A DNA stretch of 49,488 nucleotides from Alphaproteobacteria bacterium (GTDB lineage Bacteria > Pseudomonadota > Alphaproteobacteria > ATCC43930 > CGMCC-115725), in assembly GCA_019238055.1 (NCBI GenBank), contig JAFAOB010000218.1, positions 1 to 49,488 of the forward strand. Direction: 5' to 3'. Every line of letters starts with the position of its first letter. Positions within the stretch are counted from its first letter, which is position 1. Both the position numbers and the translations under genes were made by a program. Shown one piece after another: positions 11,315 through 49,488 of the stretch. The notes beneath the pieces were generated by a model. It saw nothing but the letters and a program-made list of their open reading frames with translations. It was not told where the DNA came from and did no database searches.

Positions 11315-11961
11315 CGGTGGCATACCCCGCAGTCCGACAGCGTTTCGGGATGAATGTGATAGGCCGTCATCAACGCCGTACCGGACGGCGTATTGGCGGT
11401 CCGCTTCCAAGACGGGTTGAAGACCTGGTCAAGCGGCCGCAAATGTGGCGCCGGATTGCGGTGGCAATCGAGGCACCAACTCATGTAAAGCGTTGTCGTT
11501 TTACGGGTCAGCGCTTCATCGCCGATCGAGACGTGACACTCGGTGCAGCCGACGCCCTTGGCGATGTGAATGCTGTGATCGAAATAAACGTAATCTGGCA
11601 GCCGATAAACCCAATTCCAGCGCAACGAGATGTTCTCGGCAAAACTCTGCCGCACCGGCTCCAGGACACCGGCATGTGTCCAGATCTGGGAGTGGCAGGT
11701 CATACAGGTCTCGGTTGGCGGCATGCCCGCGTATTGACCGGTTTCGACAGTCATGTGGCAATAACGACAATCGAGGCCGAGCCCGGTAACATGGTGGCGA
11801 TGGCTGAACGGGACCGGCTGTTCGGGCGCGTATCGTTCCTGTGTATTGTATCCCATGACCGGCACGACCCAGATCGAGAGCAACGCTCCCAGGAATAGAA
11901 CCACGACCGAAACGAGCGCCGTATTCATCCACAAATTGGCTCTCGGTCCGAAGATCGCCAC
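11311..11961 (-). CDS. actA: alternative complex III subunit ActA (pentaheme cytochrome c, N-terminal TM anchor)
   Basis: Five CxxCH motifs (CRYCH, CMTCH, CTECH, CLDCH, CGVCH) and an N-terminal TM helix. First gene of the cluster. Confidence 0.9.
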   Translation of the reverse strand: MAIFGPRANLWMNTALVSVVVLFLGALLSIWVVPVMGYNTQERYAPEQPVPFSHRHHVTGLGLDCRYCHMTVETGQYAGMPPTETCMTCHSQIWTHAGVLEPVRQSFAENISLRWNWVYRLPDYVYFDHSIHIAKGVGCTECHVSIGDEALTRKTTTLYMSWCLDCHRNPAPHLRPLDQVFNPSWKRTANTPSGTALMTAYHIHPETLSDCGVCHR

Positions 11962-12043
11962 CGACTACTCCGTTCAGGCGACCCCCGGATCGCGAAGGCT
12001 TCAACGGACTATTTTCGGATTCGGTTCCGCAGAGTTTCCGATT

Positions 12044-35725: not shown

Positions 35726-37318
35726 ATGCCGAAAGTTCTGATTTCCGACGATTTGAGCCCGCGCGCGGCGCAGATTTTGGCGGCGCGGGGCATCGAAGTC
35801 GACATGCTACCGGGCATCACTGCCGGCGAGCTTAAATCCCGTATTGTCGATTACGATGGCTTGGCCGTGCGCTCGGCGACCAAGGCCACCTCCGAACTCT
35901 TGGCTCACGCACCAAAGCTGAAAATCATCGGTCGCGCCGGCATCGGCGTCGACAATATCGATGTCGCTGCCGCAACCGAGCGCGGCATCGTGGTCATGAA
36001 CACGCCCTACGGCAATTCGACGACCGCCGCCGAGCACGCGATCGCGATGCTGTTTGCGCTGTGTCGCGAAATCCCGGCCGCCGACCGTTCGACCCAGGCC
36101 GGCAAATGGGAGAAATCCCGGTTTATGGGTGTCGAGCTAACCGGGAAGACGCTGGGCGTCGTCGGCTGCGGCAATGTCGGCGCCAGTGTTGCGGTGCGCG
36201 CCCTTGGGCTGCGCATGAAGGTGCTCGCCTATGATCCGTTCCTGTCTTCCGAACGGGCAATTGATCTCGGCGTCGAAAAGGTCAGCTTTGACGAACTCCT
36301 GGCCCGCGCCGATTTCGTCACGCTGCACACGCCCCTAACCGAGGCGACGAAAAACATGATCGACGCTGCCGCGATCGCCCAAATGAAGCGCGGCGTTCGG
36401 CTCGTCAATTGCGCTCGGGGCGGGCTCGTCATCGAGAAAGACCTCGCGGCGGCACTCGACAGCGGCCATGTCGCCGGTGCGGCAATCGATGTCTTTGTCG
36501 AGGAACCGGCGCGCAAGAACCCGCTGTTTGGCCGCGACAATGTCGTCGCGACCCCGCACCTCGGTGCTGCGACGACCGAAGCCCAGGAAAACGTTGCGGT
36601 GCAGATCGCCGAGCAAATGGCGGATTTTCTGCTGACGGGAGCGGTTGCCAATGCCGTCAACGTTCCGTCACTGACGGCGGAAGAAGCCAAGCGCATCCGG
36701 CCTTACATCAGGCTGGCCGAGCAGCTTGGCAGCTTTGCCGGCCAGCTGACCGAGGAGGGCATCACCGCAATCTCGGTCGAGTACGAAGGGGCGATCGCCG
36801 AACTCAACGTCAAGCCGCTGACTGCAATCATGTTGGCCGCGCTGTTGGCGCCCCAGCTCGCCAGCGTCAATATGGTCAACGCACCGGTCATCTGCCGCGA
36901 ACGCGACATCCGCGTTAGCGAGACGCGCCGGGCCGAGGCGGTCGACTATCAGACCTTGATCCGCGTCGTCGTGACCCCGAACGGCCCGGTTGCCGAACGC
37001 CGTCCGCGCGAGGTCGCCGGAACCCTGTTTGGCGGCGACAAGCCACGCATCGTCTCGGTCGAGGGCATTCCACTCGAAGCGGAACTCGGCGGCAACATGC
37101 TGTTCGTGCGCAATCTCGACAAGCCGGGGTTTATCGGCGCGCTCGGTCAGACCCTGGGTGCGGCATCGATCAACATCGCGACATTTCATCTCGGCCGGAC
37201 CGCGCCGGGGCAGGATGCGATCTGCCTTGTCGAAGTCGATCAGCCGCTTTCTTCCGCACTCCTCGATACAGTTTGCGGTTTGCCAAATGTGATCCAGGTC
37301 AAGTCGCTACGCTTTTGA
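35726..37318 (+). CDS. serA: D-3-phosphoglycerate dehydrogenase (long form with ASB/ACT domains)
   Basis: 530 aa. MPKVLISDDLSP..., GKTLGVVGCGNVG (NAD site), and C-terminal ACT-like domain. Confidence 0.94.
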   Translation: MPKVLISDDLSPRAAQILAARGIEVDMLPGITAGELKSRIVDYDGLAVRSATKATSELLAHAPKLKIIGRAGIGVDNIDVAAATERGIVVMNTPYGNSTTAAEHAIAMLFALCREIPAADRSTQAGKWEKSRFMGVELTGKTLGVVGCGNVGASVAVRALGLRMKVLAYDPFLSSERAIDLGVEKVSFDELLARADFVTLHTPLTEATKNMIDAAAIAQMKRGVRLVNCARGGLVIEKDLAAALDSGHVAGAAIDVFVEEPARKNPLFGRDNVVATPHLGAATTEAQENVAVQIAEQMADFLLTGAVANAVNVPSLTAEEAKRIRPYIRLAEQLGSFAGQLTEEGITAISVEYEGAIAELNVKPLTAIMLAALLAPQLASVNMVNAPVICRERDIRVSETRRAEAVDYQTLIRVVVTPNGPVAERRPREVAGTLFGGDKPRIVSVEGIPLEAELGGNMLFVRNLDKPGFIGALGQTLGAASINIATFHLGRTAPGQDAICLVEVDQPLSSALLDTVCGLPNVIQVKSLRF

Positions 37319-37406
37319 GCCCGCCGCTCCGATAATAGACTTCGAGCACTGCGAGCGGCGTTGCTTTCACAGTGCGTTGCGCTCCGGGGTGGTGCAAACT
37401 GAAGAA

Positions 37407-38570
37407 ATGAACGACGCCCCCCATCCAGCCTTGCTGCCGACCGGGATGCGCGACCTGCTCCCGCCCGAAGCGGAGGTCGAGGCGCAAGTCGTTGCCCGAC
37501 TGATGGCGACGCTTGCCGCACATGGCTACGAACGGGTCAAACCGCCGCTCGTCGAATTCGAGGAGACCCTGTTTTCCGGTGTAGGCGCAGCGATGGCGCC
37601 CGCCACCTTTCGCATGATGGATCCGGGCTCGCACCGCATGATCGGTGTGCGCGCCGATATGACACCGCAGATTGCCCGGATCGCCGCCACCCGCCTCGGC
37701 AATGTCGCGCGCCCGCTGCGCTTGAGCTATGCCGGCCAAGTCTTGCGGGTCAGAGGCTCGGAGATCAGACCGGAGCGCCAGATCGGCCAGGTCGGCGCCG
37801 AGCTGATCGGCGCCGGAGGGCCGGCGGCCGATGTCGAGGCGATTGCGGTTGCGGGCGAGGCATTGTCGTCGCTCGGGGTGCCGCATTTGTCGGTCGATAT
37901 CACCCTGCCGACGCTCGTTCCCGCGGTGGTCGAGGCTTACTGCATTTGTGGGGACCGCGCCGCCGCGTTGCGCGCGGCACTCGACCATAAGGACGCCGCA
38001 GCCGTGGCGGCGACTGCCGGCGAGGCCGGCGAATTGCTGGAACGCTTGTTAGCTGCTGCGGGACCCGCCGAGGCGGCGCTAGCCGCGCTTGACCAGCTCG
38101 ACTTGCCGCCGCAGGCGCGCGCCGAGCGCCTGCGGCTTGGCGCCGTGCTCGACGGTCTTAAAGACGCTGCACCCGGTCTTAAGGTCACCGCTGATCCGGT
38201 CGAAAACCGCGGCTTCGAATACCATACCGGAATCAGCTTTACGTTTTTTGCTGGGGGTGCAGCACTCCGTCAGTCCAGCGGGGAGTTGGGGCGGGGCGGA
38301 CGCTATCAAGCGGGCGACCCCGCCGCTCCCGAGCCGGCGACCGGTTTTACCCTTGATACCGACACGATATTGCGAACCCTGCCCGAGGTGATGCCCCAGC
38401 CCAGGTTGTTGCTGCCACCGGGTACCGGGCGCGCTCGTTCTGCTGCGCTCCGAGAGAAGGGTTGGATCACGGTTGCTGCACTCGACCCTGCCGCCGACTG
38501 GCGAGCGGAGGCCCGGCGGCTCGGCTGCTCGCATGTCCTGGAGGACGGTGCGCCGCGCCCGCTTGACTAA
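37407..38570 (+). CDS. hisZ: ATP phosphoribosyltransferase regulatory subunit (HisRS paralogue)
   Basis: LLPTGMRDLLPPEAE... and FRMMDPGSHRMIGVRADMTPQIARI. Start placed at MNDAPH (37407). Confidence 0.85.
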   Translation: MNDAPHPALLPTGMRDLLPPEAEVEAQVVARLMATLAAHGYERVKPPLVEFEETLFSGVGAAMAPATFRMMDPGSHRMIGVRADMTPQIARIAATRLGNVARPLRLSYAGQVLRVRGSEIRPERQIGQVGAELIGAGGPAADVEAIAVAGEALSSLGVPHLSVDITLPTLVPAVVEAYCICGDRAAALRAALDHKDAAAVAATAGEAGELLERLLAAAGPAEAALAALDQLDLPPQARAERLRLGAVLDGLKDAAPGLKVTADPVENRGFEYHTGISFTFFAGGAALRQSSGELGRGGRYQAGDPAAPEPATGFTLDTDTILRTLPEVMPQPRLLLPPGTGRARSAALREKGWITVAALDPAADWRAEARRLGCSHVLEDGAPRPLD

Positions 38571-38582
38571 AGGAGACCCGGA

Positions 38583-39875
38583 ATGGCCAATGTCGCCGTC
38601 GTCGGCGCTCAATGGGGTGACGAGGGCAAAGGCAAGATCGTCGACTGGCTATCGGAGCGAGCCGATGTCGTGGTGCGCTTTCAGGGCGGCGCCAATGCCG
38701 GACACACGATCGTCATCGGCAATGTCGAATACAAGCTCAGCCTGCTGCCGTCCGGAGTCGTGCGGCCTGGCAAAGTATCGATTATCGGCAATGGCGTTGT
38801 CGTCGATCCTTGGGCCCTGATCGACGAGATCGAAGCGATCCGCGAAAAGGGGGTTGAGGTTACCCCGGAAAATCTGAAGCTCGCCGACAACGCCGCGCTG
38901 ATCCTGCCGTCGCACGGCGCGCTCGACCGGGCGCGCGACGCGCGCAGCGGCGCCCTGCGGATCGGCACCACCGGCCGCGGCATCGGTCCGGCCTACGAGG
39001 ACAAAGTCGGCCGCCGGGCAATCCGGGTGTGCGATCTCGCCGACCCGGCAGCGCTGGAGTCGCGGCTCGAGCTGCTGTTATTACACCACAATGCGTTGTT
39101 GCGTGGGCTCGACCAGCCGGAAATCGATCGCAGCGAACTGGCCGCCAAGCTGCGCGCTGTGGCGCCACGCATTTTACCTTATGCGGCGCCCGTATGGCGG
39201 GTGCTCGACGAGGCGCGCCGCGGCGGTCGCCGCATCCTGTTCGAGGGCGCGCAAGGGGCGATGCTCGATGTCGACCACGGAACCTACCCGTTCGTGACCT
39301 CGTCAAATGCGCTGGCCGGTCAGGCCGCAGCCGGATCGGGCATCGCGCCGAGTGCCATCGGCTATGTCCTCGGCATCACCAAGGCCTATACCACCCGCGT
39401 CGGAGCGGGGCCGTTCCGGACGGAACTTAGCGACGCAATCGGCGAGACGCTGGGTGAGCGCGGGCGCGAGTTTGGTGTTGTTACCGGCCGCAAGCGGCGC
39501 TGCGGCTGGTTTGACGCGGTGATGGTGCGCCAAGCGGTCAAGACCGGCGGGGTCGACGGTATCGCCCTGACCAAGCTCGACGTGCTCGACGGGTTTGAGG
39601 AGGTCAAGATCTGCACCGCCTATCGACACGGCGCGACGATCTACGACTATCTCCCGAGCGGAACTTCCGCCCAGGCCGAGATCGAGCCGATCTATGAAAC
39701 CGCGGAAGGCTGGCGCGAGAGCACGCGCGGTGCACGATCCTGGGCCGATCTGCCGGCAACCGCGATCAAATACATCCGCCGGCTGGAAGAGCTGATCGGC
39801 GCGCCGGTGGCCTTGTTATCGACCAGTCCCGAGCGTGACGACACGGTGTTGGTCCGCGACCCCTTCGCCGACTAG
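38583..39875 (+). CDS. purA: adenylosuccinate synthase
   Basis: [35 protein letters not shown], 430 aa. Confidence 0.97.
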
Positions 39876-39905
39876 TGCCGATACATACATCTTCCGCCTC
39901 TGCGG

Positions 39906-40769
39906 CTAGCCGGGGCGGCGGGCGCTAACGAGAAAGATCGTTCCCGGTAGCCGGACCTCTCTCGAAGCGGCTTCGGCAGCGAACGCCGCCTCGATGTCGC
40001 GCGCGATCGCCCCGCGGGTCACCTCATCGGGTTGCTTCTCATCGAGCAACCGCGCGGTCGGGCCCATTGCCAGCGATTGGCGTGCCTCCTCTGCCGGGCT
40101 GCCGCCGATGATCGTCGGGTGAGCCCGTTCGACGCTGATTTCGGCGAAGCCGGCCGCGTTGAGAAAATTATGGATATAGTCGGGGTCGGCAAAGGCGAGC
40201 GGGCCCGGCTCGCGCGCCGATCGCGGCGCCGGCGGCCCCAAATGGCGGACCGCCACGTCATAGGCGACCAGCCAATGCCGGTTCTCGGCGAGCGGCCCCC
40301 AGCAGGCGAAGACGAGCCGGCCGCCCCGCTTTAGCGCAGTCCCGATATTGCGGAACGCGACCGTCGGATCGGCGAAAAACATGACCCCCATACGCGAGGT
40401 CGCAACGTCGAAGGCGGCTGGCTCGAATGCAAACACCTGTGCATCGCCAAGATGCAATGTGACATTGCGCAATCCGCGCTCATTGGCCCGTTGCCGCGCC
40501 ACTGCGAGCATCGGCTCGGAGATGTCGACGGCGACGAGGCGACCATGCGCGCCGATCGCCTCGGCGAGCGGCAAGGTCAGCGCCCCGGTGCCGCAGCCGA
40601 TTTCGAGCACATTCTCGCCGCCCTCAAGCTCTAGCCGTGCCAGCAATAGGGCAAGGCTTTCGCGGTTGCGGCGCTCTCGCGATCCCGGCGCCGCAGCCCA
40701 GCGCGGGCCCGCGACCGTATTCCAATATCGGCGCATCGCCGCATTCGCGTCGACAGCTTGCTCAGGCAT
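39906..40769 (-). CDS. class I SAM-dependent methyltransferase
   Basis: Motif I is VLEIGCGTGALTL. Start placed at MPEQAVDAN (40769) with SD GGAGG 7 nt upstream. The track ORF extension overlaps the neighbouring SDR gene. Confidence 0.85.
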   Translation of the reverse strand: MPEQAVDANAAMRRYWNTVAGPRWAAAPGSRERRNRESLALLLARLELEGGENVLEIGCGTGALTLPLAEAIGAHGRLVAVDISEPMLAVARQRANERGLRNVTLHLGDAQVFAFEPAAFDVATSRMGVMFFADPTVAFRNIGTALKRGGRLVFACWGPLAENRHWLVAYDVAVRHLGPPAPRSAREPGPLAFADPDYIHNFLNAAGFAEISVERAHPTIIGGSPAEEARQSLAMGPTARLLDEKQPDEVTRGAIARDIEAAFAAEAASREVRLPGTIFLVSARRPG

Positions 40770-40804
40770 CTGCAGACCTCCGATTTTAGCCCGATACGAC
40801 AAGA

Positions 40805-41599
40805 CTACAGTGACATGCCGCCATCGAGCAGGATCGTTTGTCCGGTCATGTAATCGGAGGCGGGTGCGGCGAGATAGAGCGCCAAAAAGCCGACCTCGCG
40901 CAATTTTCCGGGTCGCTTCAATGGCACGATCTGTTCTGCGCGGGCCATTGTCTGGCGGACGCGTTCTTCGCCGGAGGTCACGACATCGGGGAAAATGCCC
41001 GGGGCAATGGCGTTGACGTTGATCCCATAAGGCGCCCATTCAAGCGCCTGGGCTCGCGTAAAGCCGGCGAGGGCGGTCTTGGCGGTTGTATACAGCACCA
41101 TGTCGCGGCCGCCCTGATGCGCGGTCCACGAGGCGATATTGATGATCTTGCCTGAACGCCGTGCCAACATGTGCGGTCCGACCGCGCGCGTGCATAACAG
41201 CGCCTCGGTCAGATTGATGTCGATAATGAAGCGCATCTCATCATCGGAGATGCCGACCGCGGTCTCCGCTCGCTCAGGCAAGGTCACCAAGGGTTTGCGG
41301 ATCGAATCGCCGAGCGCGTTGACCAGCACGTCAATTCGTCCAAACTCCGCCAGGACCCGGTCCACCGCGTGCCGGACATCGTCGGATCTTGTCACGTCGG
41401 CGATGATCGGGACGACGCGCCGACGAGAAGCGATCGCGATTTCGGTCGCCGCAGCTTCGACATATCGTGACGTCAAGGCGTTGAGAGCGATATCGGCGCC
41501 GGCTTCGGCGAGCACCTGGGCAATCCCTTTGCCGATGCCGCGCCCCGCTCCGGTGATGAAAACGACTTTCCCGGTAATATCGAATTCGGCCGGCATCAT
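40805..41599 (-). CDS. SDR family oxidoreductase
   Basis: KVVFITGAGRGIGKG and YTTAKTALAG (YxxxK). Start placed at MMPAEF (41599) behind GAGGA. An alternative ATG lies at 41611. Confidence 0.88.
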   Translation of the reverse strand: MMPAEFDITGKVVFITGAGRGIGKGIAQVLAEAGADIALNALTSRYVEAAATEIAIASRRRVVPIIADVTRSDDVRHAVDRVLAEFGRIDVLVNALGDSIRKPLVTLPERAETAVGISDDEMRFIIDINLTEALLCTRAVGPHMLARRSGKIINIASWTAHQGGRDMVLYTTAKTALAGFTRAQALEWAPYGINVNAIAPGIFPDVVTSGEERVRQTMARAEQIVPLKRPGKLREVGFLALYLAAPASDYMTGQTILLDGGMSL

Positions 41600-41781
41600 C
41601 TGCGTCCTCATCCTGAACCTGCAGTGCGGATTACCGATTATCGATCGGGTGCCGCCGCCGTACAAGCGAACTGCCGTCAATCGCAGCGCGGTGGGCGCCA
41701 AGACAGACCGAGACGAGCCCTTCAAAAAGCTCTCTTCAGCCGAGCAATTTACGTTAAAAGAGTCCTGAAGGAGAAGTCCTG

Positions 41782-41901
41782 GTGAATAATTCGTTGATTT
41801 TTTGCATCTTGCAACCGAGCCGTGGAGCGCGCGAAACTAGATCGCCTCGGCAGCGGATGAATGGATTGAGGGATGGGACGCCAACCAGTCTCGTTACGTA
41901 A
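41782..41901 (+). CDS. candidate 39-aa leader/precursor ORF overlapping the nucleotidyltransferase start
   Basis: My own read: strong SD AAGGAGA (41768-41774), 7 nt before a GTG at 41782. It encodes MNNSLIFCILQPSRGARETRSPRQRMNGLRDGTPTSLVT* and overlaps the ATG at 41873 by 29 nt. Not in the ORF track because it is under 60 aa. Confidence 0.25.
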   Translation: MNNSLIFCILQPSRGARETRSPRQRMNGLRDGTPTSLVT

Positions 41902-43144
41902 ATACGGGATCGACCCCTCCCCAGAATTCTTGCTGGTCCTTTATTGCGCCCGAACTGCTCCAGACTCCGAGATCCAGGCCAGCCTAGCCGGGTTGGCGAA
42001 GCAAATCACCGACTGGGATTACGTGTTCCATTTCGCGGAAGAGCAAGGAGTTTTATTATTTCTATTACATAATCTTTATCGGACTGTTTGCGCGCCGTTG
42101 CCGCAGACTTTGCTAACCAGTGTCAGACGACGTTATGCTTCACGAAGCCAATCACTGCTGGTTCAACTTCGCGAGGTTACTTCACTCCTTGCTGTGCATG
42201 GCATAAGGGCGATCTCCTATAAAGGGCCGACATTGGCGACAATTGTTTACCCGCACTGCAACTTGCGTGTCTCAAGCGACTTGGATCTTTTAGTGCACGC
42301 GAGTGATTACCGGAATGCTTCAAAGGTCCTTTTAGACCAGGGCTATTTAGCAGCCGAGGATTGTGGCTATAAGTGCCACTTATGGCATCCTATCAAGCGG
42401 ACCGACGTCGATCTTCATAGAGCCCTGGCTCCGAGATGGTATCAATTCAGATTCAATTTCGATCGCGCATGGGAACGAGCAGTTCGGCTCACAATACCCA
42501 ATGGAGGTGTGACCGTTACATTTGGCTTAGAGGATTTACTGATCGTGCTGTGCGTCGATCTCGTTAAAGATATCGCACAACCATGGAATTTTCGGCTCGT
42601 GAAATTAACCGATATTGCTGAACTCATCGACAATATCGAGCACATTAACGTGTCTGCGCTGATCGACCGCGCGAAGTCCATTGGTCTCAGTCGGATAACG
42701 CTTTTTGGGCTCCTCCTTACAGATCGCATACATTCGGTAAGCCTGCCTGCTGTAATCCAAGAACAGATTCAGCTGTATTCTCCTCGTTTGCACAAACTTG
42801 TCGACCTAACGATGCGTCTGATGCTTGATGAGAAATCATCAAAGCGACAACCAACGCCAAAATTTCCACATGAAGTAAGGACAATCCTTAATTTACAGGA
42901 TAACCTCTGGCAGAAATTGTGTGTTATTGCCCTTTATATGGTCAGGCCAGTGATGCTTATTAGTAAATACGGGTTCGCAAGGGTCACAAAGTTCTTTCAG
43001 GCATTCTGGTGGATCAAAGAACGGGCACGGCTCTGCGAAGCGGGCCGATTTGCAAAACCGATCAGACGCAAACCTGAAGCGCGGTCGTCGGCAGAAGTTA
43101 AACTTAATACCGATATAGGGCTCCGGTCAAAAAATACGTCTTGA
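41873..43144 (+). CDS. nucleotidyltransferase family protein (NTP_transf_5 / PF14907-like)
   Basis: 423 aa. PEFLLVLYCART.., ..YKGPTLA..., NLRVSSDLDLLVHASDYRNASKVLLDQGY matches the DxD nucleotidyltransferase signature of this family. An in-frame TGA at 41867-41869 fixes the 5' limit. Confidence 0.75.
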   Translation: MGRQPVSLRKYGIDPSPEFLLVLYCARTAPDSEIQASLAGLAKQITDWDYVFHFAEEQGVLLFLLHNLYRTVCAPLPQTLLTSVRRRYASRSQSLLVQLREVTSLLAVHGIRAISYKGPTLATIVYPHCNLRVSSDLDLLVHASDYRNASKVLLDQGYLAAEDCGYKCHLWHPIKRTDVDLHRALAPRWYQFRFNFDRAWERAVRLTIPNGGVTVTFGLEDLLIVLCVDLVKDIAQPWNFRLVKLTDIAELIDNIEHINVSALIDRAKSIGLSRITLFGLLLTDRIHSVSLPAVIQEQIQLYSPRLHKLVDLTMRLMLDEKSSKRQPTPKFPHEVRTILNLQDNLWQKLCVIALYMVRPVMLISKYGFARVTKFFQAFWWIKERARLCEAGRFAKPIRRKPEARSSAEVKLNTDIGLRSKNTS

Positions 43145-43248
43145 AAAGTTGAAAAATCCCGTCAATATCATCTTCGCTGAGATGTACGGGGGCATTTTTC
43201 TTGAACGCCGGAGAACTTTACAACAAAGTTAATACGGGTCGGAGAGAG

Positions 43249-44163
43249 ATGCCGGACGTGATTGGACTGCAGAGCCCAACAATGGCGGCCTTTGTCCTAG
43301 CATTTGAATGTTACGGCGCCCGCGTCGGCGTCAGTACCAATGAAGCCAGCATCTTTGATCTTCTGCCGAAGTATCTGCCAGTCAAATCTGACCTGATCAG
43401 CCTCTCAGCCGTCGAGAACAAGTTTACACTCTTGAAGGGTGACCCGGCCAGCAGCTCGGGCCGAGATGGCGCGTACTGTCTTTATGACAGTGAATGTTTG
43501 GTGTTAAGTACATCGGATCTCCATGTCGCTTTGGAACAACTGGCGAGCGAACTGGATGCGGTGGTCGCACTCGAAGCATCACCCTCGCTCTTTGTCCATG
43601 CCGGTGTTGTAGGCTGGCGCGGTGGTGCCATCGTCATTCCTGGGCGCAGTATGACCGGGAAGACCTCGCTGGTCATGGAATTAGTAAGGACTGGGGCGAC
43701 CTATTACTCGGACGAATACGCGGTATTCGATAGGCAAGGTCAGATACACCCGTTTCCGAGGCCGATGCATCTTCGCACGGGTGAGCTGGGAAGATGGCAG
43801 AAAATCACCGCCGAGAGTCTCGGCAGTCATGTTGGGACCGGTGCCCTTCCGGTGGCTTTGGTTGTCGCTACTCAGTACGACCCGCGGGCGCGTTGGAGCC
43901 CAAAGCTCCTCGAGCCGGGGCAGACCGTACTTCGACTCTTCGACAATACAGTTGACGCCTTGCGACGCCCAGAGGACGCGATCGATATTTTCGCCAGAGT
44001 GGCAGCCGGTTGCGTTGCGATTACCGGCGCACGGCCTTCATCAGAGCAAGTCGCGCCGTTCCTATTAGCACTTTGTGCCCAAACAACTCAAAGTAGGGCT
44101 TTCGCGGAACCTTCGGAATGCTATTCCGATTTTAATCTCGACCCCCTCCCCACTAACCCCTAA
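43249..44163 (+). CDS. HPr kinase/phosphorylase-related P-loop kinase (HprK-related kinase type)
   Basis: VHAGVVGWRGGAIVIPGRSMTGKTSLVMELVRTGATYYSDEYAVFD parallels the HprK Walker-A region (G.SG.GKS...L...G..L..DD). ATG 43249 lies behind GGAGAGAG. The track start is a TTG at 43201. Confidence 0.75.
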   Translation: MPDVIGLQSPTMAAFVLAFECYGARVGVSTNEASIFDLLPKYLPVKSDLISLSAVENKFTLLKGDPASSSGRDGAYCLYDSECLVLSTSDLHVALEQLASELDAVVALEASPSLFVHAGVVGWRGGAIVIPGRSMTGKTSLVMELVRTGATYYSDEYAVFDRQGQIHPFPRPMHLRTGELGRWQKITAESLGSHVGTGALPVALVVATQYDPRARWSPKLLEPGQTVLRLFDNTVDALRRPEDAIDIFARVAAGCVAITGARPSSEQVAPFLLALCAQTTQSRAFAEPSECYSDFNLDPLPTNP

Positions 44164-44179
44164 CGACGGAAAGGCAGAG

Positions 44180-44650
44180 ATGCCATACAAACCAGAAGTG
44201 CGGCGAGACGAATTGACGATAAGGGAAGTCCAAGACGAGTTGGTTGTGTACGATGGCCGTGAAAAACGCGCCCATCGTCTCAATAAGACGGCCGCGCCAA
44301 TCTTGCAGGCCAGCGATGGCTCGCGAACCGTCGATCAGATCGCAGCTTTGTTGTCCGATGATATGGATATTAAGGATAGAACAGAGTTGGTCTGGTTGAC
44401 ACTACAGGATCTGTCTAAGGTGGGTCTTTTAACCGCCGCGATCCCGTCGGGACATGTGGATCGATCGCGCCGCAATCTACTACAAAGGGCAGCAGTTATC
44501 GGCCTCACTCTGCCAGTTGTTGAGTCGATCGTTGCCCAGTCTGCAACAGCCCATGCCTCGGATCCGAGGCGATATGAGCATCGGGAACATCATTCTCATC
44601 GAGATTTCGATCATCATCGAGATTTCAATCGAGACAGGGATCGGGATTAA
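44180..44650 (+). CDS. PqqD/RRE-family peptide-binding domain fused to a Tat-signal-like segment and a His/Asp/Arg-rich repeat tail
   Basis: 156 aa from MPYKPEV. Residues 8-90 are PqqD-like (LVVYDGREKRAHRLNKTAAPILQASDGSRTVDQIAALL...LQDLSKVGLL). Residues 96-126 are SRRNLLQRAAVIGLTLPVVESIVAQSATAHA. Residues 127-156 are SDPRRYEHREHHSHRDFDHHRDFNRDRDRD. Confidence 0.75.
   Translation: MPYKPEVRRDELTIREVQDELVVYDGREKRAHRLNKTAAPILQASDGSRTVDQIAALLSDDMDIKDRTELVWLTLQDLSKVGLLTAAIPSGHVDRSRRNLLQRAAVIGLTLPVVESIVAQSATAHASDPRRYEHREHHSHRDFDHHRDFNRDRDRD
44597..44632 (+). repeat. tandem 18-nt coding repeat in the tail of the PqqD-fusion gene
   Basis: CATCGAGATTTCGATCAT / CATCGAGATTTCAATCGA encode HRDFDH / HRDFNR. 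Confidence 0.8.
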
Positions 44651-44822
44651 GAAATTGGCGCGAGCCCAGTAATGTGGAACAAGAACAGGGACTCCATCAG
44701 GGATAGCGCCATCACAGGTATCCCAGGGTAACTCTCAAGCATCGACAGCTTAACTCGTTCGCGCGCAAATAGGCGCGCAATCGTCGAGCTGGTCGCAGTC
44801 GAGTGCTGTTACGACACTGCCG

Positions 44823-45337
44823 TCACCGACTGCGGCGCTCAGAGTTGCCACCCGGTTGGGCAATGTTGCCGCTGAGCGCCAAATGCAGCAGCGGCACGGC
44901 GGGATCGATTACCAGCGGCAGCGGCCGGTACGAAACCTGGAGGCGTTCGCGCGCATCCAACGCGGTGAAGCTATAGCCGCCGCACGCCAAAACCGCTGCG
45001 GCCGGCTCGCCGACATAGCGCACGCGATCGACCGCGAGGCAATAATGCTCGATCGACGCTTGACTGCGGCCGTGAGAGGCTGCGTCCAGCGCCGGCATCT
45101 TCGGGATAATGGCCATGACCCTTGAGAGAACCGATGCCGCTACAATGTTGCTGGAAAGCAACTTGGCAAGCAGATGCGGCGAGCGCAGGATCCCCCATGG
45201 AAGGCCCCCGCTTTGAGCGGCAAGTCGTCGCCGAAGCGGCCGCAGCCGCACAGGAGGCCGGGATCCTTGATGCGCGCGAGCGGCCGCCCAAGATAAGACC
45301 GGGACAAAGCGATGGCGGGTCGGATCGAGATCGTCAT
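44823..45337 (-). pseudogene. 5' fragment of a xanthine dehydrogenase/aldehyde oxidase family molybdopterin-binding subunit gene, frameshifted and truncated
   Basis: Two track ORFs in different frames join into one N-terminus: MTISIRP..LGRPLARIKDPGLLCGCGRFGDDLPLKAG | GILRSPHLLAKLLS...LAVDRVRYVGEPAAAVLA...DARERLQVSYRPLPLVIDP. This matches the G.P..R.ED.RLL.G.G.Y.DD / RSPHAHA / VRYVGEP pattern of the family. About 170 of roughly 750 expected residues remain. Confidence 0.7.
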
Positions 45338-45547
45338 GCAGTGATTAGGCCCAAGCAACAGGATCCGGTCTCTGCAAAATCTACCTGCGGCTGATTTGTG
45401 ATCCGCCCTTCCCGGCCTTCAGTCGAGTCCGATCCAAGATGATCACCGCAGAACGGGAAGACCACAAGAAATCAGTGGCGGCTAGGCTCGTCCGGGTGCT
45501 GAATTCGCCCGGATTGACCCGGGATTTCGCGAGTGGGGTCCAGCGAA

Positions 45548-46816
45548 ATGGGCTCGCGCGCTGACGTTATCGTCCTCGGAGCGGGAATGGTCGGCGTGAG
45601 TGTAGCGCTGCACCTGCAAAAGCGCGGGCGCGACGTGGTTCTGATCGACCGGAGGGCGGCAGGAGAAGAAACCAGCTACGGCAATGCCGGCTTGATCCAG
45701 CGCGAAGCCGTCATCCCCTACACCTTTCCCCGCGAACTCGGCGCGATCCTGGGTTACGCGATGAATAACCGGCGCGACGCGGTCTACCATTTGTCGGCCC
45801 TGCCGCGTATCGCTCCGTGGCTCTTCAAATATTGGCGGAACGCAGCCCCCGAACGTGTCGAGCGTTCAATGCGGGCGCTTGCGCCATTGATGGCAAGATG
45901 CGTTGATGAGCATGACGCGCTGATCACCGAGACTGGCGATGCGGCGCAAAGCCTTGTGCACCATAAAGGCTGGCTCAATTGTTTGCGCACAGAGGAGAGC
46001 CTGCAGGCAGCGATTGCGCATGCCCGTCGGCTCGACAAATACGGCGTCGACTATGCGGTGCTCACGGGCGCGCAATTGCGCGAGCTCGAACCGCATTTGT
46101 CGGACGCAATCGTCGGTGCGATCCACATCCGCGGCTCGCCGACTTCATCCGACCCCGGTCTGCTGACAAAGGCTTATGCCGACCTCTTTATCCGCAACGG
46201 CGGACGCTTTCGACAGGGCGATGCACGTCGGCTCGCGGCGAAGCCCTCAGGTTGGAGTATCGCTAGTGATACTGGCGTGATCGAGGCTCGTGACATGGTG
46301 GTAGCGCTCGGTCCCTGGTCCGACGAGATCTTCCGGCCGCTTGGGTATGACATCCCATTGGCGGTGAAGCGCGGCTACCACATGCATTACGGTGTGCGGG
46401 GCAATGCGATGCTGACGCATCCGGTGCGTGATGCCGATGGCGGCTTCTCGCTGGCACCGATGAGCAAAGGAATACGCCTGACAACCGGGGTCGAGTTTGC
46501 GGATCGTGACGCTCCACCGAGCCCAGTCCAGCTTGCGCGCGATGAGCCGCTGGCCCGCGAGTTGTTTCCACTCGCCGAACGCCTGGAGCCCGAACCTTGG
46601 ATGGGGCGGCGTCCGTGCCTTCCCGATATGGTTCCGGTGATCGGCAGAGGTGAGCGGCATCAAGGGTTGTGGTTCGCCTTTGGTCATGCCCATCACGGCT
46701 TCACACTCGGACCCGTTACCGGACGGCTGCTCGCCGAGATCATGACCGGCGAGGAGCCCTTCACCGAGCCGTCGCGCTACGCCGCCAGCCGGTTTCACAA
46801 CCCAGCCACAAGATAA
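45548..46816 (+). CDS. FAD-dependent oxidoreductase (DadA / D-amino-acid dehydrogenase-like)
   Basis: ADVIVLGAGMVGVSVALHLQKRGRDVVLIDR (GxGxxG, beta-alpha-beta) and the C-terminal GHAHHGFTLGPVTGRLLAE. Confidence 0.85.
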   Translation: MGSRADVIVLGAGMVGVSVALHLQKRGRDVVLIDRRAAGEETSYGNAGLIQREAVIPYTFPRELGAILGYAMNNRRDAVYHLSALPRIAPWLFKYWRNAAPERVERSMRALAPLMARCVDEHDALITETGDAAQSLVHHKGWLNCLRTEESLQAAIAHARRLDKYGVDYAVLTGAQLRELEPHLSDAIVGAIHIRGSPTSSDPGLLTKAYADLFIRNGGRFRQGDARRLAAKPSGWSIASDTGVIEARDMVVALGPWSDEIFRPLGYDIPLAVKRGYHMHYGVRGNAMLTHPVRDADGGFSLAPMSKGIRLTTGVEFADRDAPPSPVQLARDEPLARELFPLAERLEPEPWMGRRPCLPDMVPVIGRGERHQGLWFAFGHAHHGFTLGPVTGRLLAEIMTGEEPFTEPSRYAASRFHNPATR

Positions 46817-46980
46817 CCCAGCCGCTTACTGCTGCTTATCCTGACTTTGGCTTTTGCAGCCGGGCGCGGGGAAATCTCATAGTAGAGCGGCTCCAACCCG
46901 GCATCCTGGCGGGCGGCAAGAGAGCAGAGCACGGGAGGGTAAGTTTAGGTCGCGCACCTTATACAACCGAGTCGGGTTAC

Positions 46981-47538
46981 TCAGCGCGCCATCCCGGTTG
47001 CGCCCGCTGGCACGTCATAAAATGCGAGGGTCATCGAGACGCTGGTGTAGAAGCCCATCAAGCAGATGACGTCGGTGATGCCGATATCGCCGAGCGCTTC
47101 GACCGCGCGATCGTATAGCCCCTTCGCGACCCACCGCGAATTGGCGAGGCATGTCGCCATCTCGTAGACGACCTGCTCGCGCGTATCGGAGAACGAGGTC
47201 GGCAGACCGGACAACAGCGCCTCGACCTTATCGGCCGGCAACCCGGCAGCTTTGCCGGCGCGCTCATGCGCGTTGGTCGGAAAGGTCGAACGCCATTTGC
47301 TATTGATGATACATACGGCTATCTCACGCTCGCGCTCAGAGAGCGAATAACCGGTGCGGAAATAAGCGCCCAACGGCCCCATCACCTTCGCCAGCTTGGG
47401 GTTGTGCACCCAGATCTTGTTCGGCCCGCCGAGCGCGCCGCGGGTCTCGATCAACGAGCGATATCCCTCCTGTTGCTCTGGCGTCATCTGGTCATAGGGT
47501 ATTTCGGCATAGCGACCGAAGGTTGGTGTCTCAGGCAT
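46981..47538 (-). CDS. carboxymuconolactone decarboxylase (CMD/AhpD-like) family protein
   Basis: 185 aa from MPETPTFGRY with SD GGAAGGAAA. The assignment rests on an all-helical composition and the ..LSEREREIAVCIINSKWRSTFPTNAHERAG.. pattern. Confidence 0.6.
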   Translation of the reverse strand: MPETPTFGRYAEIPYDQMTPEQQEGYRSLIETRGALGGPNKIWVHNPKLAKVMGPLGAYFRTGYSLSEREREIAVCIINSKWRSTFPTNAHERAGKAAGLPADKVEALLSGLPTSFSDTREQVVYEMATCLANSRWVAKGLYDRAVEALGDIGITDVICLMGFYTSVSMTLAFYDVPAGATGMAR

Positions 47539-47733
47539 TTCGGGTTTCCTTCCCTGGATTGGACTGGCGGCGCATCCTGCAACGGGCCCCAAGTTCGCGA
47601 TATCTGCTTCAGCTTTTTGCCGTCACGCTGGAGGCGCAGGACCCGCGCCGGTGCCAGACCGCGATGGATGGAGGAGTATCGGGTACGACCGCTCGTGATG
47701 CGCAAATCAGGAATGTCGATGACATTTTCCGAC

Positions 47734-47750
47734 AATAGCGCTACGCTATT
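47734..47750. promoter_or_regulatory. 17-bp perfect palindrome in a divergent promoter region (LysR-type T-N11-A compatible)
   Basis: AATAGCG-CTA-CGCTATT lies between the CMD gene (-) and the deacylase gene (+), about 67 nt upstream of the ATG at 47817. Confidence 0.25.
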
Positions 47751-47816
47751 ATAAGTAAGCAAGCATTTCGTGCTGCGCATCGCCGACCCGTAACCGTCGA
47801 GTGAGGAGGACACAAG

Positions 47817-49488
47817 ATGGCCGAGTACGACTTGATCATTCGGAACGGCACGATTGTGGATGGAACGGGAGGGATACCGGCCTATCGGGGCGATGTGGCG
47901 GTCAAGGACGGAAAGATCGCCATGATTAGCGGACGCATCAAGGCGACCGCGACAAAGGAGGTGGACGCCACCGGATGTATCGTCGCTCCGGGGGCGATCG
48001 ACCTGCACAACCATTACGATTTGCAGTTGAACTGGGATCCGTATGCAACGATGTCGGGCTGGCACGGGGTGACCTCGGTCGCGATCGGCCAGTGCGGCTT
48101 TGGCTTTGCGCCGTGCAAGCCGAAGGATCGAGAGGCCGCGATGCGTCTTCTGACGCGCATCGAGGCTATTCCCCTAAGTACAATGGAAAAAGGTCTGCCC
48201 TGGGACTGGGAAAGCTTCCCTCAATGGATGGACAGCTTGGCCAAGCGCCCGTTGGGCGTCAATGTCGGTGCGCTGGTACCCTTCAACCCGCTGCGGCTCT
48301 ATGTGATGGGCATCGAAGAGTCGCGGGAGCGGGTCTATGCGACCGAGGCAGAAACCCGCCAGATGCAGGCGCTCGTCCATGAGGCGATGAAGGCCGGCGC
48401 CTTTGGCTGGTCGTCGATGAAGACGCTGATCAACCGCCCCGATGACGGTCGCTTCATTCCGAGCCAGGTGGCCTCCAACGAGGAATACCTCGCGCTGGCG
48501 CAGGTGCTGGCCGATTTCGGCGTCGGCAGCATCGGCTGGACACGCGGCGCGGCCGAGCGGCCTTTGCCGCCGGGCGAACCCGATCTGCTTGGCGGCGCAA
48601 CGCCGACCGGCTCGGGCATTCAGATGGATCCGGTCGAGGGCGATGCCCCGGGCAAAGGCCGCGAGGACTTCCTGATCGAGATGTGCCTGGCGAGCGGACG
48701 GCCGTTGCAATGGGGCGCGGTCAGCCAAAGCGAGGCGGCGCCGGGCCGCTACAAGGAGCAGCTCGCCTTTCTCGAGCGCGCCCACAGAGAAGGCGCTTGG
48801 ATGTACGCGCAAACCGCGTCGAACCCGCCCTCGCCGGTTTTCGAGCTCGCCGAGTATAACGGCTTCGATGCGATTCCAAACTGGATCGATCCGTTTGTCG
48901 GCACGCCCGAAGAACGCATCGCCAAACTGAAACAGCCCGGGGTGCGCGATCGCATGCGCCGGGACGTTGGCGCGTGGACCGGCACGGGCGGCCAAGCCGA
49001 TGTCGTGTCGAACTGGGCAAAGATGCGAGTCGTCGAAGTGCGGCACCCGCGGAATTACCAATATGAGGGGATGACCATCGCTGAATTGGCCGAGGCGACC
49101 GGCAAGCACCCGATGGACGCGATGCTCGATCTCGCGATCGACGAAGACCTGCGGACCGAATTCTCGACCGATCCGACCAACGGCACGGACCCGCAGGCGG
49201 TCGCGGAAATCCTCAATCACCCCTATATCCACCCTTGCGTCTCGGATGGCGGCGCGCATGTCCGCTACCTGACGCTGGGCACTTGGCCGGTTAATCTCCT
49301 CGCGACTTGGACACGGGATCGCCAGGTCATGAGCCTGGAGAAGGCCCACTATAAGATCAGTGGCCTGCCGGCGTGGATCGCCGGGTTCACCGATCGCGGC
49401 ATCCTGCGCGAGGGCTTCGCCGCCGACATCATCGTCTACGAACAGGAGAAGCTGGGGTTTCTCTATGACAGCCCAGTTTACGCCACAG
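47817..49488 (+). CDS. N-acyl-D-amino-acid deacylase (D-aminoacylase) family amidohydrolase, 3'-partial (runs off the window)
   Basis: My own translation: SD GAGGAGGA, then MAEYDLIIRNGTIVDGTGGIPAYRGDVAVKDGKIAMI..GCIVAPGAIDLHNHYD...VSDGGAHV.... The frame stays open for 557 codons to the window end. It is absent from the ORF track, presumably because it has no stop. Confidence 0.8.
   Translation, partial: MAEYDLIIRNGTIVDGTGGIPAYRGDVAVKDGKIAMISGRIKATATKEVDATGCIVAPGAIDLHNHYDLQLNWDPYATMSGWHGVTSVAIGQCGFGFAPCKPKDREAAMRLLTRIEAIPLSTMEKGLPWDWESFPQWMDSLAKRPLGVNVGALVPFNPLRLYVMGIEESRERVYATEAETRQMQALVHEAMKAGAFGWSSMKTLINRPDDGRFIPSQVASNEEYLALAQVLADFGVGSIGWTRGAAERPLPPGEPDLLGGATPTGSGIQMDPVEGDAPGKGREDFLIEMCLASGRPLQWGAVSQSEAAPGRYKEQLAFLERAHREGAWMYAQTASNPPSPVFELAEYNGFDAIPNWIDPFVGTPEERIAKLKQPGVRDRMRRDVGAWTGTGGQADVVSNWAKMRVVEVRHPRNYQYEGMTIAELAEATGKHPMDAMLDLAIDEDLRTEFSTDPTNGTDPQAVAEILNHPYIHPCVSDGGAHVRYLTLGTWPVNLLATWTRDRQVMSLEKAHYKISGLPAWIAGFTDRGILREGFAADIIVYEQEKLGFLYDSPVYAT

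Follow-up and report, generated by a model that had tools for sequence, protein, structure and literature searches.

A PqqD-type RRE domain, a twin-arginine-type signal and a fast-evolving tail are united in one protein, encoded by a single open reading frame (ORF) at 44180-44650 of the 49,488-nucleotide alphaproteobacterial stretch analysed here (hereafter the window). This protein belongs to a large fusion family for which no description was found in the searchable literature, where nothing was found that pairs a PqqD/RRE domain with a twin-arginine signal, or with an HprK-type kinase outside lasso clusters. The domain architecture is conserved across the family, and linkage to two enzyme genes recurs in most loci. 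Together, the three genes may form a self-contained modification-and-export module, in which the 156-aa protein would be the substrate, its RRE docking in cis, the kinase modifying the junction, and the tail being exported and cleaved, a reading to which we give slightly less than even credence.

Architecture and distribution of the fusion gene

As originally predicted, the ORF continues in frame beyond its PqqD domain to give 156 residues, and ATG 44180 is assigned as its start codon because the N-terminal M-x-Y-K-P is conserved. Both enzyme genes lie upstream on the same strand. The features of the locus are as follows.

41873-43144, + strand: NTP_transf_5 (PF14907) nucleotidyltransferase, first gene of the three-gene module (Pfam, E 2e-44)
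43201-44163, + strand: HprK-like P-loop kinase (TIGR04352 HprK_rel_A, E 1e-9, 37.8 bits, under the cutoff of 200)
44180-44650, + strand: fusion gene (156 aa plus stop; ATG 44180, TAA 44650), comprising RRE, Tat-like signal and tail
44180-44449, + strand: PqqD/RRE domain, residues 1-90 (PF05402, AlphaFold2, Foldseek)
44456-44458, + strand: in-frame GTG, V93, four codons before the RR pair, judged not to be a start (start-site scan)
44465-44557, + strand: Tat-type signal-like segment, residues 96-126 (S-R-R-N-L-L-Q-R, h-region, P112-V-V-E-S116-I-V, A124-H-A126)
44513-44533, + strand: candidate RRE-binding motif P112-V-V-E-S116-I-V118 (hxxPxV), holding an invariant Ser/Thr (AlphaFold2, column statistics)
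44558-44560, + strand: Ser127 codon, the conserved junction Ser/Thr and candidate phosphorylation site (family conservation, BsfK precedent)
44558-44647, + strand: Cys-free, His/Asp/Arg-rich 30-aa tail, candidate exported cargo or core (sequence)
44596-44630, + strand: 18-nt tandem repeat, 1.9 copies, encoding HRDFDH / HRDFNR (Tandem Repeats Finder)

The single-ORF fusion is kept in 32 word-index matches, and the best 150 of 10,101 profile matches all cover both the PqqD domain and the RR segment. This one-ORF architecture occurs in at least 150 protein clusters from at least six phyla, all metagenomic; no fewer than 575 clusters built at 50% identity pass E<1e-30. The loci represent Alpha- and Gammaproteobacteria, Acidobacteriota, Armatimonadota, Abditibacteriota, Gemmatimonadota and Solirubrobacterales, every homologue deriving from a metagenome or MAG of uncultured soil and sediment lineages. 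Aligning the homologues, as had been suggested, found the extension present in every relative, with a tail that varies. Column statistics given below refer to 180 family proteins, and neighbourhood counts to 17 loci, with ORFs within 6 kb.

That a missed stop or frameshift has joined a PqqD gene to a separate secreted-peptide gene is scarcely credible. Nothing speaks in favour, although the gene appears split in one homologous locus (L018), and a sequencing or assembly artefact is excluded by the recurrence of the same single ORF in assemblies made independently from many samples and phyla, and by an orthologue (locus L005, 93.6% identical) that is colinear and in frame. A nested gene, in which the last 64 codons from GTG 44456 are translated alone as a Tat-leader peptide with the PqqD chaperone acting in trans, is very improbable. 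The GTG noted in the original prediction is present in both the window and L005, but its use as an internal start is not borne out: no Shine-Dalgarno-like sequence lies upstream of it in the window, in seven of the 17 loci the 15 codons leading up to the RR pair contain no in-frame ATG, GTG or TTG, and the linker is in frame and unbroken in 180 of 180 proteins. In the flanks of the island, searches for direct or inverted repeats, a promoter and a terminator returned nothing above chance.

The RRE domain and its link to the extension

The N-terminal part had been recognised as a canonical PqqD winged-helix domain, an assignment confirmed by PF05402, which matches residues 20-65 at 27.2 bits (Pfam gathering score 23.4) and is matched by all 32 relatives, and by a model that superposes on solved RREs. 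AlphaFold2 predicts residues 1-90 with a pLDDT of 83-91, as strands at 12-17, 20-25 and 30-34 followed by helices at 38-44, 51-57 and 64-80. The top Foldseek matches in the PDB are the lasso B1 RREs TbiB1 (5v1v, 5v1u) and 6jx3, followed by PqqD (5sxy), with TM-scores to target of 0.67-0.84 across the four (best matches 0.78-0.84). The modelled RRE fold is thus nearest to lasso B1 proteins, the best-matching structures of which were solved with leader peptides bound. Against TIGR04353 (PqqD_rel_X), a model of 74 positions that spans the PqqD domain alone, the RRE scores 24.7 bits, under the cutoff of 35.

Two AlphaFold2 models, of proteins ~35% identical, predict a beta strand V-x-[ST]-I-x within the extension (strand pLDDT 60-70), at residues 114-118 of the window protein and the equivalent 118-122 of P0030, for which the RRE sheet is the sole sheet available to pair with. 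Mutual-information/APC analysis between RRE and extension (Neff 163) placed the pairs 26-122, 30-106 and 81-110 among the top 20, and no pair that clearly sets the extension strand on beta3.

The twin-arginine segment

The Tat-type features that had been read from the sequence, S96-R97-R98-N-L-L, an h-region AAVIGLTLPVV and A124-H-A126, are all in place. Taken in isolation, the window segment reaches 16.8 bits with TIGR01409 (TAT_signal_seq), a marginal 0.1 bit above the cutoff of 16.7. Six homologue segments gave 20.4, 20.2, 15.9, 15.6 and 13.8 bits and, for one, no match, two of the six reaching or passing the cutoff, and Pfam TAT_signal matched neither whole fusion-family proteins nor isolated segments. 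Whereas Tat signal peptides are N-terminal on their precursors, the RR pair here stands at residues 97-98, behind a 95-aa folded domain, and is internal in every family member.

Across the 180 members the consensus is [ST]-R-R-x-h-h-[RQK]-[KR]-L-G ... A-P-T-P-A-x-A, with hydrophobic residues at +2 and +3 after the RR pair, then [RQK][KR]. Ser/Thr precedes the pair in 95%, the two arginines are conserved at 100% and 98%, P112 at 99%, S/T116 at 100%, P120 at 91% and S/T127 at 85%, and P112 and S/T127 are separated by 15 residues in 147 of the 148 sequences holding both. The conservation of P112, S/T116 and S/T127, and of their spacing, exceeds what a signal peptide needs.

The same segment could instead be an uncleaved signal-anchor, tethering an RRE scaffold to the membrane while the enzymes act on a substrate in trans (an envelope polymer, or a peptide from another locus) and a dispensable periplasmic tail drifts; this we consider unlikely. 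The conserved parts are indeed the RRE and a hydrophobic segment, and the family median of 22.5 uncharged residues is of membrane-spanning length, many relatives having the ~18 or more uncharged residues expected of a plain bitopic signal-anchor. The window protein, however, has a longest uncharged stretch of just 12 residues (AAVIGLTLPVV, then Glu115), below that length, and the highest Kyte-Doolittle mean over any 19 of its residues is 1.56. The invariant Pro and Ser, the prolines at -6 and -4 and the A-x-A are better suited to a cleaved signal, and the fixed P112-S127 spacing suggests that the protein itself is being measured. It had been proposed that a common plain membrane anchor lacking a conserved tail would speak against the original prediction. 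To the letter this is what the homologues show, the extension being common and the tail unconserved, but not in spirit, since the 12-residue stretch, Glu115, the family Tat motif, the invariant Pro/Ser and the fixed 15-residue spacing indicate that the segment is not a plain anchor.

As S/T116 is more conserved than S127, it could be the real target. In an alternative arrangement, the RRE would hold its own signal and thereby block export, and phosphorylation of S/T116 by the kinase, or its nucleotidylation by the nucleotidyltransferase, would free or block that signal, a cis form of Tat proofreading where the enzymes regulate secretion rather than decorate a product. We judge it improbable, to about the same degree as the anchor. 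S/T116 lies within the AlphaFold2-predicted strand, and its S-I context recalls Ser46-Ile47 of HPr, the target of HprK/P; the arrangement copes with very short or extremely diverse tails, and it is common for Tat substrates to have chaperones of their own that bind the signal, TorD and DmsD among them. Known HprK-like peptide kinases nevertheless decorate the core peptide, the arrangement does not account for what the nucleotidyltransferase does or why S/T127 is conserved, and we know of no precedent for phosphorylation within a signal peptide.

The hypervariable tail

The window tail, SDPRRYEHREHHSHRDFDHHRDFNRDRDRD, is free of Cys and highly charged, and ends in an 18-nt tandem repeat, all of which had been anticipated; Tandem Repeats Finder places the repeat at 44596-44630 (period 18, 1.9 copies, 94% matches), and the L005 orthologue differs by a 6-nt in-frame indel within it. 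Much of the tail has an AlphaFold2 pLDDT <50, and it is probably disordered. Its His/Asp/Arg composition is kept in 16 clade relatives while its sequence is not, and the tails of this clade possibly bind metal. Measured against the L005 orthologue, dN/dS is 0.06 in the signal-like segment, 0.36 in the RRE and ~1.9 in the tail, the last resting on seven nonsynonymous changes and one synonymous change; by this measure the signal-like extension is the most constrained part of the protein.

Throughout the family, residues 1-127 are conserved, and beyond residue 127 the sequence is hypervariable, with nothing conserved and tails of 0-404 aa (median 44.5). Cys-rich tails make up 61% of the total, and 103 of these 110 (94%) have an even Cys count (binomial estimate ~3e-23), which points to export of the family tails. 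The long tails of some relatives carry SH3_3, Laminin_G_3, TIG or Dicty_CTDC domains, and overall the tail behaves like a hypervariable core or cargo. Were it instead the drifting appendage of an anchored scaffold, tails that nearly vanish, the loss of all conserved sequence past residue 127, and the window value of ~1.9 would be accommodated, but drift leaves the even Cys counts and the folded extracytoplasmic tail domains unexplained. Some members are almost tailless (QSKKK, FSGS, GSG), which means that the release of cargo cannot by itself be what the system is for.

It had been suggested that the tail offers Ser and Tyr hydroxyls to the adjacent enzymes. The residues internal to the tail are not conserved, and the conserved hydroxyls are those of S/T127 and S/T116, in front of the tail or at its first position. 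A C-terminal Ser as kinase site, in the manner of paeninodin, was ruled out, as the C-terminal residues are not enriched in Ser. The broader suggestion, of an RRE covalently joined to something resembling its own leader and core, has been strengthened: the extension is universal and constrained, combines a Tat consensus with invariant residues and a predicted strand, and leads into a hypervariable tail.

Neighbouring genes

The fusion gene has a kinase homologue as its neighbour in 15 of the 17 loci, the other two having no clear kinase neighbour, and a nucleotidyltransferase homologue lies beside it in 11. The catalytic motifs of both enzymes are intact. Nine orthologues of the nucleotidyltransferase (dN/dS 0.21 against L005) keep the Pol-beta-type K117-G118, D136-x-D138 and D247. 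In the kinase, conservation across 16 sequences is 90% or higher at H133, G148, G153-K154-T155 and D171-E172, with a spacing identical to that of H148, G163, G168-K169-S170 and D186-D187 in BsfK (PMC10368454). A PDB sequence search with the two enzymes gave no match at E<=1.

When the ORFs lying within 6 kb in the 17 loci were clustered all against all, solely the fusion, kinase and nucleotidyltransferase families recurred; no protease, transporter or exporter, cyclase, Tat or radical SAM gene did so. No candidate gene for a trans substrate recurs nearby either, which counts against the anchored scaffold, and the intergenic regions of the island hold no separate small precursor ORF, including any with a YxxPxL-type leader. 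The further neighbours in the window encode a short-chain dehydrogenase, a methyltransferase and a DAO oxidoreductase. At locus L019, two fusion paralogues share one kinase and one nucleotidyltransferase, resembling multi-precursor RiPP clusters. Radical SAM/CofH and VitK2 genes close to L001 were rejected as parts of the module, being menaquinone (futalosine) genes, and a role in anti-phage defence was set aside, PADLOC giving no match for any of the three proteins.

Comparison with known systems

A close parallel is the lasso tailoring module (paeninodin, pseudomycoidin, bsf), which likewise brings together a B1 RRE, an HprK-like kinase and a nucleotidyltransferase. In the bsf cluster of Bradymonas sediminis, the HprK-like kinase BsfK phosphorylates Ser3 of the lasso core, accepts Thr at this position, and works much faster with the RRE BsfB1; the cluster also holds a nucleotidyltransferase, BsfN, and a leader with Y(-17)xxP(-14)xL(-12) (PMC10368454). 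In pseudomycoidin, the nucleotidyltransferase adds hexoses onto phosphoserine (PMC8498205). BsfK thus targets, in an RRE-dependent manner, a Ser/Thr near the leader/core junction, and the candidate S127 sits at the signal/tail junction. The lasso leader YxxPxL resembles the hxxPxV of the fusion, and the distance from Pro to Ser is 16 residues in bsf and 15 here. The window kinase also conforms to the H...G-x-x-G-x-G-K-S...D-D motif of the phosphorylated lasso subtype.

There are also differences. A lasso precursor is separate and short, with its YxxPxL, whereas hxxPxV lies in cis within the fusion protein; the lasso RRE is free or fused to an enzyme, and is here fused to the candidate substrate. 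Unlike lasso leaders, the presumptive leader of the fusion doubles as a Tat-type signal. The cores, of 0-404 aa and mostly disulfide-rich, do not have the lasso macrolactam acceptor pattern, and the cyclase (C), B2 protease and ABC exporter of lasso clusters are absent within 6 kb in the 17 fusion loci. The best curated models for the kinase and RRE belong to HPr-rel-A (TIGR04352 and TIGR04353), which likewise couples an HprK-like kinase with a PqqD protein, but the fusion module falls well short of both cutoffs (kinase 37.8 bits, cutoff 200; RRE 24.7 bits, cutoff 35).

Among Tat systems, known parallels are TorD/TorA, DmsD/DmsA, and the internal Tat signals of Sec/Tat dual-targeted Rieske proteins. 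The fusion shares with TorA- and DmsA-type signals the S-R-R-x-h-h-K pattern, a moderate h-region, A-x-A, and one dedicated peptide-binding domain; in contrast to TorD and DmsD, the domain presumed to bind is an RRE, joined to the N-terminal side of an internal signal that lies behind a 95-aa domain.

NHLP/Nif11 precursors, reportedly described by Haft et al. in 2010, are said to have a ~100-aa leader from a folded family, a hypervariable and often Cys-rich core, and paralogues that share enzymes. The fusion family has the same long leader and hypervariable core, but ends its leader in A-x-A and has no linked exporter, where NHLP/Nif11 have a Gly-Gly ending and a peptidase-containing ABC exporter. 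Bufferins and DUF2282/MNIO precursors are described as combining a general secretion signal with prior cytoplasmic modification, some being metal-binding (PMC11626156, PMC12710340). They have an N-terminal Sec signal, an RRE on a separate partner and MNIO enzymes, and the fusion differs in all three.

Proposed mechanism

We propose that the module is akin to the one that tailors phosphorylated lasso peptides, operating without lasso cyclase or protease; within this proposal, binding in cis, the site and chemistry of the modification, the Tat route and the cleavage are what we infer. The N-terminal RRE of the 156-aa substrate would remain in the cytoplasm and bind the protein's own h109-x-x-P112-x-V114-x-S116-I motif in cis. 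This docking would present the junction S127, 15 residues past P112, to the adjacent kinase for phosphorylation, after which the phosphate may be extended by the nucleotidyltransferase, by analogy with pseudomycoidin. Tat accepts cargo that is already modified; the C-terminal tail would cross the membrane by way of the twin-arginine segment, and signal peptidase I would cut at A-x-A and release the tail. In most members the product would be a disulfide-rich mini-protein, and in the window's clade a 30-aa His/Asp/Arg-rich peptide of repeat-variable length. For disulfide-rich cargo, Sec export is more typical than Tat, which counts against the Tat step.

Extended to the family, the proposal would define a widespread and unrecognised class of precursors for ribosomal peptides or small secreted proteins, whose leader is a fused RRE plus a twin-arginine signal, whose RRE binds that leader in cis, whose junction Ser/Thr is passed to the kinase, with or without the nucleotidyltransferase, and in which Tat and signal peptidase replace a dedicated protease and exporter. 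We regard this generalisation as possible, though rather doubtful.

Significance

The proposal yields simple predictions for mass spectrometry and reporter fusions. If true, this would be the first known case of an RRE being part of the substrate, and the first of a general export signal doubling as a leader peptide, with a lasso tailoring module reused in the absence of lasso machinery. To our knowledge, the chemistry of PF14907-family nucleotidyltransferases is uncharacterised in vitro, including those of lasso clusters, and the module would offer a concrete system for their role, as well as for the proofreading or gating of Tat signals by a domain in cis. It would constitute a minimal two- or three-gene system for modified secreted peptides, which would be N-terminally phospho-modified and possibly glycosylated, mostly disulfide-rich, and His/Asp-rich in the alphaproteobacterial clade. 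With hundreds of distinct knottin-like cores, the family represents a sizeable and unexplored reservoir of peptides.

The three-gene module and its neighbourhood

The fusion gene lies in a module of three genes on one strand:

41873-43144 (+), PF14907 nucleotidyltransferase
43201-44163 (+), HprK-like P-loop protein (the kinase)
44180-44650 (+), fusion ORF of 156 aa, named in the original prediction
44312-44314 (+), codon of fusion-protein S45, Ser where most of the family has Cys

The catalytic residues of the kinase (H133, G148, G153-K154-T155, D171-E172) and of the nucleotidyltransferase (K117-G118, D136-x-D138, D247) are intact. G+C across the module (41800-44700) is 0.44-0.57, against 0.61-0.70 in the flanks, and this lower value suggests a horizontally acquired island; beside it neither flanking repeats nor a tRNA or integrase gene turned up, and a search of its intergenic regions found no small precursor ORF. 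Directly downstream, at the right border, a 142-aa ORF (44826-45251, -) has as its sole match the a/b-hammerhead domain of aldehyde oxidase/xanthine dehydrogenase (PF01315, E 5e-7, just under the gathering score), and looks like a truncated gene remnant; apart from this ORF, the 880 bp at 44651-45532 hold no convincing gene. A 72-aa ATG ORF in another frame (44454-44672, +), overlapping the signal and tail region, is unsupported and seems to be a shadow ORF arising from the repeat-rich tail.

Across 17 distinct loci, the fusion gene is adjoined by a kinase homologue in 15, using a profile built from the kinase, and by the nucleotidyltransferase in 11, several contigs ending too early to tell; gene order differs among loci. 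The same three genes occur at the locus of P0029, a family protein with a Cys-rich tail. All-against-all clustering of ORFs within 6 kb gave no further recurring family, and no protease, exporter, cyclase, radical SAM enzyme or Tat gene recurs within that distance. The two loci lacking a clear kinase neighbour differ in their surroundings: L010 (4792-7199) has MacB/FtsX-type ABC permease genes upstream and an adjoining 235-aa ORF that matches the kinase profile weakly (E 1.4e-3), and L017 (6174-6995) a divergent upstream sigma-70 family gene. At the Acidobacteriota-type locus L001 (6472-8432), the module adjoins menaquinone (futalosine-pathway) genes, VitK2_biosynth and radical SAM CofH_C, and a BrnT/CopG toxin-antitoxin pair, neighbours that recur in no other locus. 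In L019, from a Solirubrobacterales MAG, two fusion paralogues (7965-8687 and 11767-12513), with Dicty_CTDC-type Cys-rich repeats in their tails, flank and share one kinase and one nucleotidyltransferase gene, an arrangement resembling a multi-precursor RiPP cluster.

A widespread fusion family

Comparative sequence data establish the fusion as real and as the hallmark of a large family. A word-index search returned 32 relatives (33-94% identity, 111-183 aa), all 32 running on in frame through an invariant RR. Searching 1.84 billion representative proteins with a profile gave 10,101 matches at E<=1e-3, of which 575 reach E<=1e-30; the best 150 of the 10,101, 125-538 aa long, all align over positions about 3-130, the RRE plus RR segment. 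Genome scanning found 15 loci, every one from MAGs, in Alphaproteobacteria, Gammaproteobacteria, Acidobacteriota, Abditibacteriota, Armatimonadota, Gemmatimonadota and Solirubrobacterales. One of these 15 loci, L005, is colinear with 36185-49488 at 93.6% nucleotide identity. Because the one-ORF fusion recurs family-wide and L005 is colinear, a missed stop or frameshift is excluded. In L018 (7878-8484, Candidatus Fredericiella danica), the fusion gene seems split into overlapping ORFs (7878-8225 and 8161-8484), with a frameshift, pseudogenisation or misassembly as possible causes.

The sequence features originally described are present: a PqqD domain scoring above the PF05402 gathering threshold; the Tat-like motifs S96-R-R-N-L-L, AAVIGLTLPVV (hydrophobic) and A124-H-A126; a Cys-free, His/Asp/Arg-rich tail; an 18-nt tandem repeat (44596-44630, 1.9 copies, 94% matches); and an in-frame GTG at 44456. 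The proposal that this GTG starts a nested precursor gene is not supported, as it has no Shine-Dalgarno sequence in the window and 7 of the 17 loci lack any in-frame ATG, GTG or TTG within 15 codons upstream of the RR. The confirmed observation is best read as a chaperone fused to its precursor.

Relative to L005, the nucleotidyltransferase has a dN/dS of 0.21, the kinase one of 0.27 and the fusion gene one of 0.36. Of the parts of the fusion gene, the RRE has 0.36, the signal-like segment 0.06 (1 nonsynonymous against 6 synonymous changes) and the tail about 1.9, on small counts (7 nonsynonymous, 1 synonymous).

The RRE and its putative leader

Modelling points to a genuine RRE at the N-terminus. 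In the AlphaFold2 model, made with the 32-sequence family alignment, residues 1-90 form three strands and three helices (pLDDT 83-91), and the best Foldseek PDB matches are lasso B1 proteins solved with leader peptides (TbiB1 5v1v, 5v1u; 6jx3), followed by PqqD itself (5sxy), with TM-scores to target of 0.67-0.84. At the position of S45 in the RRE, 81% of family members have Cys (W-R-H-C-D-G); the clade of the window has Ser (Q-A-S-D-G).

Beyond the domain, residues 96-107 are modelled as a helix and 114-118 (V-E-S-I-V) as a beta strand (pLDDT 62-69); a relative about 35% identical, P0030, has the same strand at the equivalent V-A-T-I-T (pLDDT 67-70). RREs bind leader peptides by strand-to-sheet pairing, and in the monomer model the RRE sheet is the sole one open to it, from which we infer that the RRE may pair in cis with its own 114-118 strand.

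The signal-like segment

The family consensus of the segment is SRRQVIRKLGLAGGLALLLPVVTSIVAPTPAMAQS.

Conservation of the signal-like segment in 180 family sequences (window numbering)
S/T96: 95%
R97: 100%
R98: 98%
100-101: hydrophobic
102-105: [RQK][KR]-L-G
P112: 99%
V/I114: 95%
S/T116: 100%
117: aliphatic in 98%
A119: 79%
P120: 91% (Gln in the window's clade)
A123: 67%
A125: 78%
S/T127: 85%

The segment has the look of a Tat signal, with prolines at -6/-4 that would break a helix and with an A-x-A site. Against TIGR01409, the curated Tat model, the window segment reaches 16.8 bits (cutoff 16.7); of six segments from homologues, five reach 13.8-20.4 bits and the sixth gives no match; Pfam's Tat model does not match. 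The conservation exceeds what a signal peptide needs, and P112 and S/T127 stand exactly 15 residues apart in all but one of 148 sequences (147 of 148). Gating of export by phosphorylation of the invariant S/T116 is a rival reading and seems improbable.

The tail as cargo

Conservation ceases after residue 127, and tails range from 0 to 404 aa (median 44.5, 180 sequences). At least four Cys occur in 110 of the 180, and 103 of these 110 have an even count (binomial estimate from these counts about 3e-23), the mark of mini-proteins that lie outside the cytoplasm with all their Cys in disulfides. The long tails contain SH3_3, Laminin_G_3, IPT/TIG and Dicty_CTDC Cys repeats, typical modules of secreted proteins. 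The tail evolves fast and is probably exported cargo. The window's clade belongs to a Cys-free, His/Asp-rich minority of 17 tails, which includes the HDHDHD-type tail of the unrelated P0043; among close relatives composition is kept, with in-frame indels in the repeat (6 nt in L005).

An uncleaved, membrane-anchored RRE scaffold serving a trans substrate is an unlikely rival. Members nearly devoid of a tail favour it; against it stand the evenness of the Cys counts, the presence of folded secreted domains and the short h-region of the window protein, whose uncharged stretch of only 12 residues, followed by Glu115, would make a poor membrane-spanning anchor.

Relation to known systems and proposed mechanism

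In lasso-peptide biosynthesis, HprK-like kinases and nucleotidyltransferases are already known to act in tailoring, the former phosphorylating a precursor Ser and the latter, for pseudomycoidin, placing hexoses on the phosphate (PMC8498205). The closest precedent is the bsf lasso-peptide cluster of Bradymonas sediminis, which includes a nucleotidyltransferase, BsfN, and in which BsfK phosphorylates core Ser3 (Thr being accepted there), is strongly accelerated by the RRE protein BsfB1, and requires H148, G163, K169, S170, D186 and D187 (PMC10368454). The window kinase motif is spaced identically to these required residues. The bsf leader carries Y(-17)xxP(-14)xL(-12), its Pro 16 residues ahead of the target Ser (PMC10368454), comparable to h109-x-x-P112-x-V114 here, with a conserved Ser/Thr 15 residues past the Pro. 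The departures from lasso clusters are large: neither a lasso cyclase nor a B2 protease nor an exporter is linked, the RRE and the presumed substrate are one protein, the leader also serves as a Tat-type signal, and most cores are disulfide-rich mini-proteins. Among curated families, those of the HPr-rel-A system (TIGR04352, TIGR04353) come nearest, with scores far under the cutoffs. A 2025 structure-based RRE survey mentions neither kinases nor the RRE-Tat-tail architecture, and a literature search found no paper combining PqqD/RRE with a twin-arginine signal.

In the mechanism judged likeliest, which follows the fused chaperone-precursor reading, the cytoplasmic RRE would bind its own hxxPxV-x-S-I motif, the kinase would phosphorylate the junction Ser/Thr127, a phosphate that the nucleotidyltransferase may extend, and the RR signal would take the modified tail across the membrane, with signal peptidase cleaving at A-x-A. 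This chain as a whole is tentative, falling a little short of an even chance. From this window, the chain would yield a His/Asp/Arg peptide of 30 aa, drifting in length through repeat slippage, for which metal binding is plausible.

The window's gene belongs to a large architecture that is, as far as could be established, uncharacterised. RRE-guided peptide kinase modules are already known, and this one is a variant of them; there is a real chance that the family represents a new precursor class.
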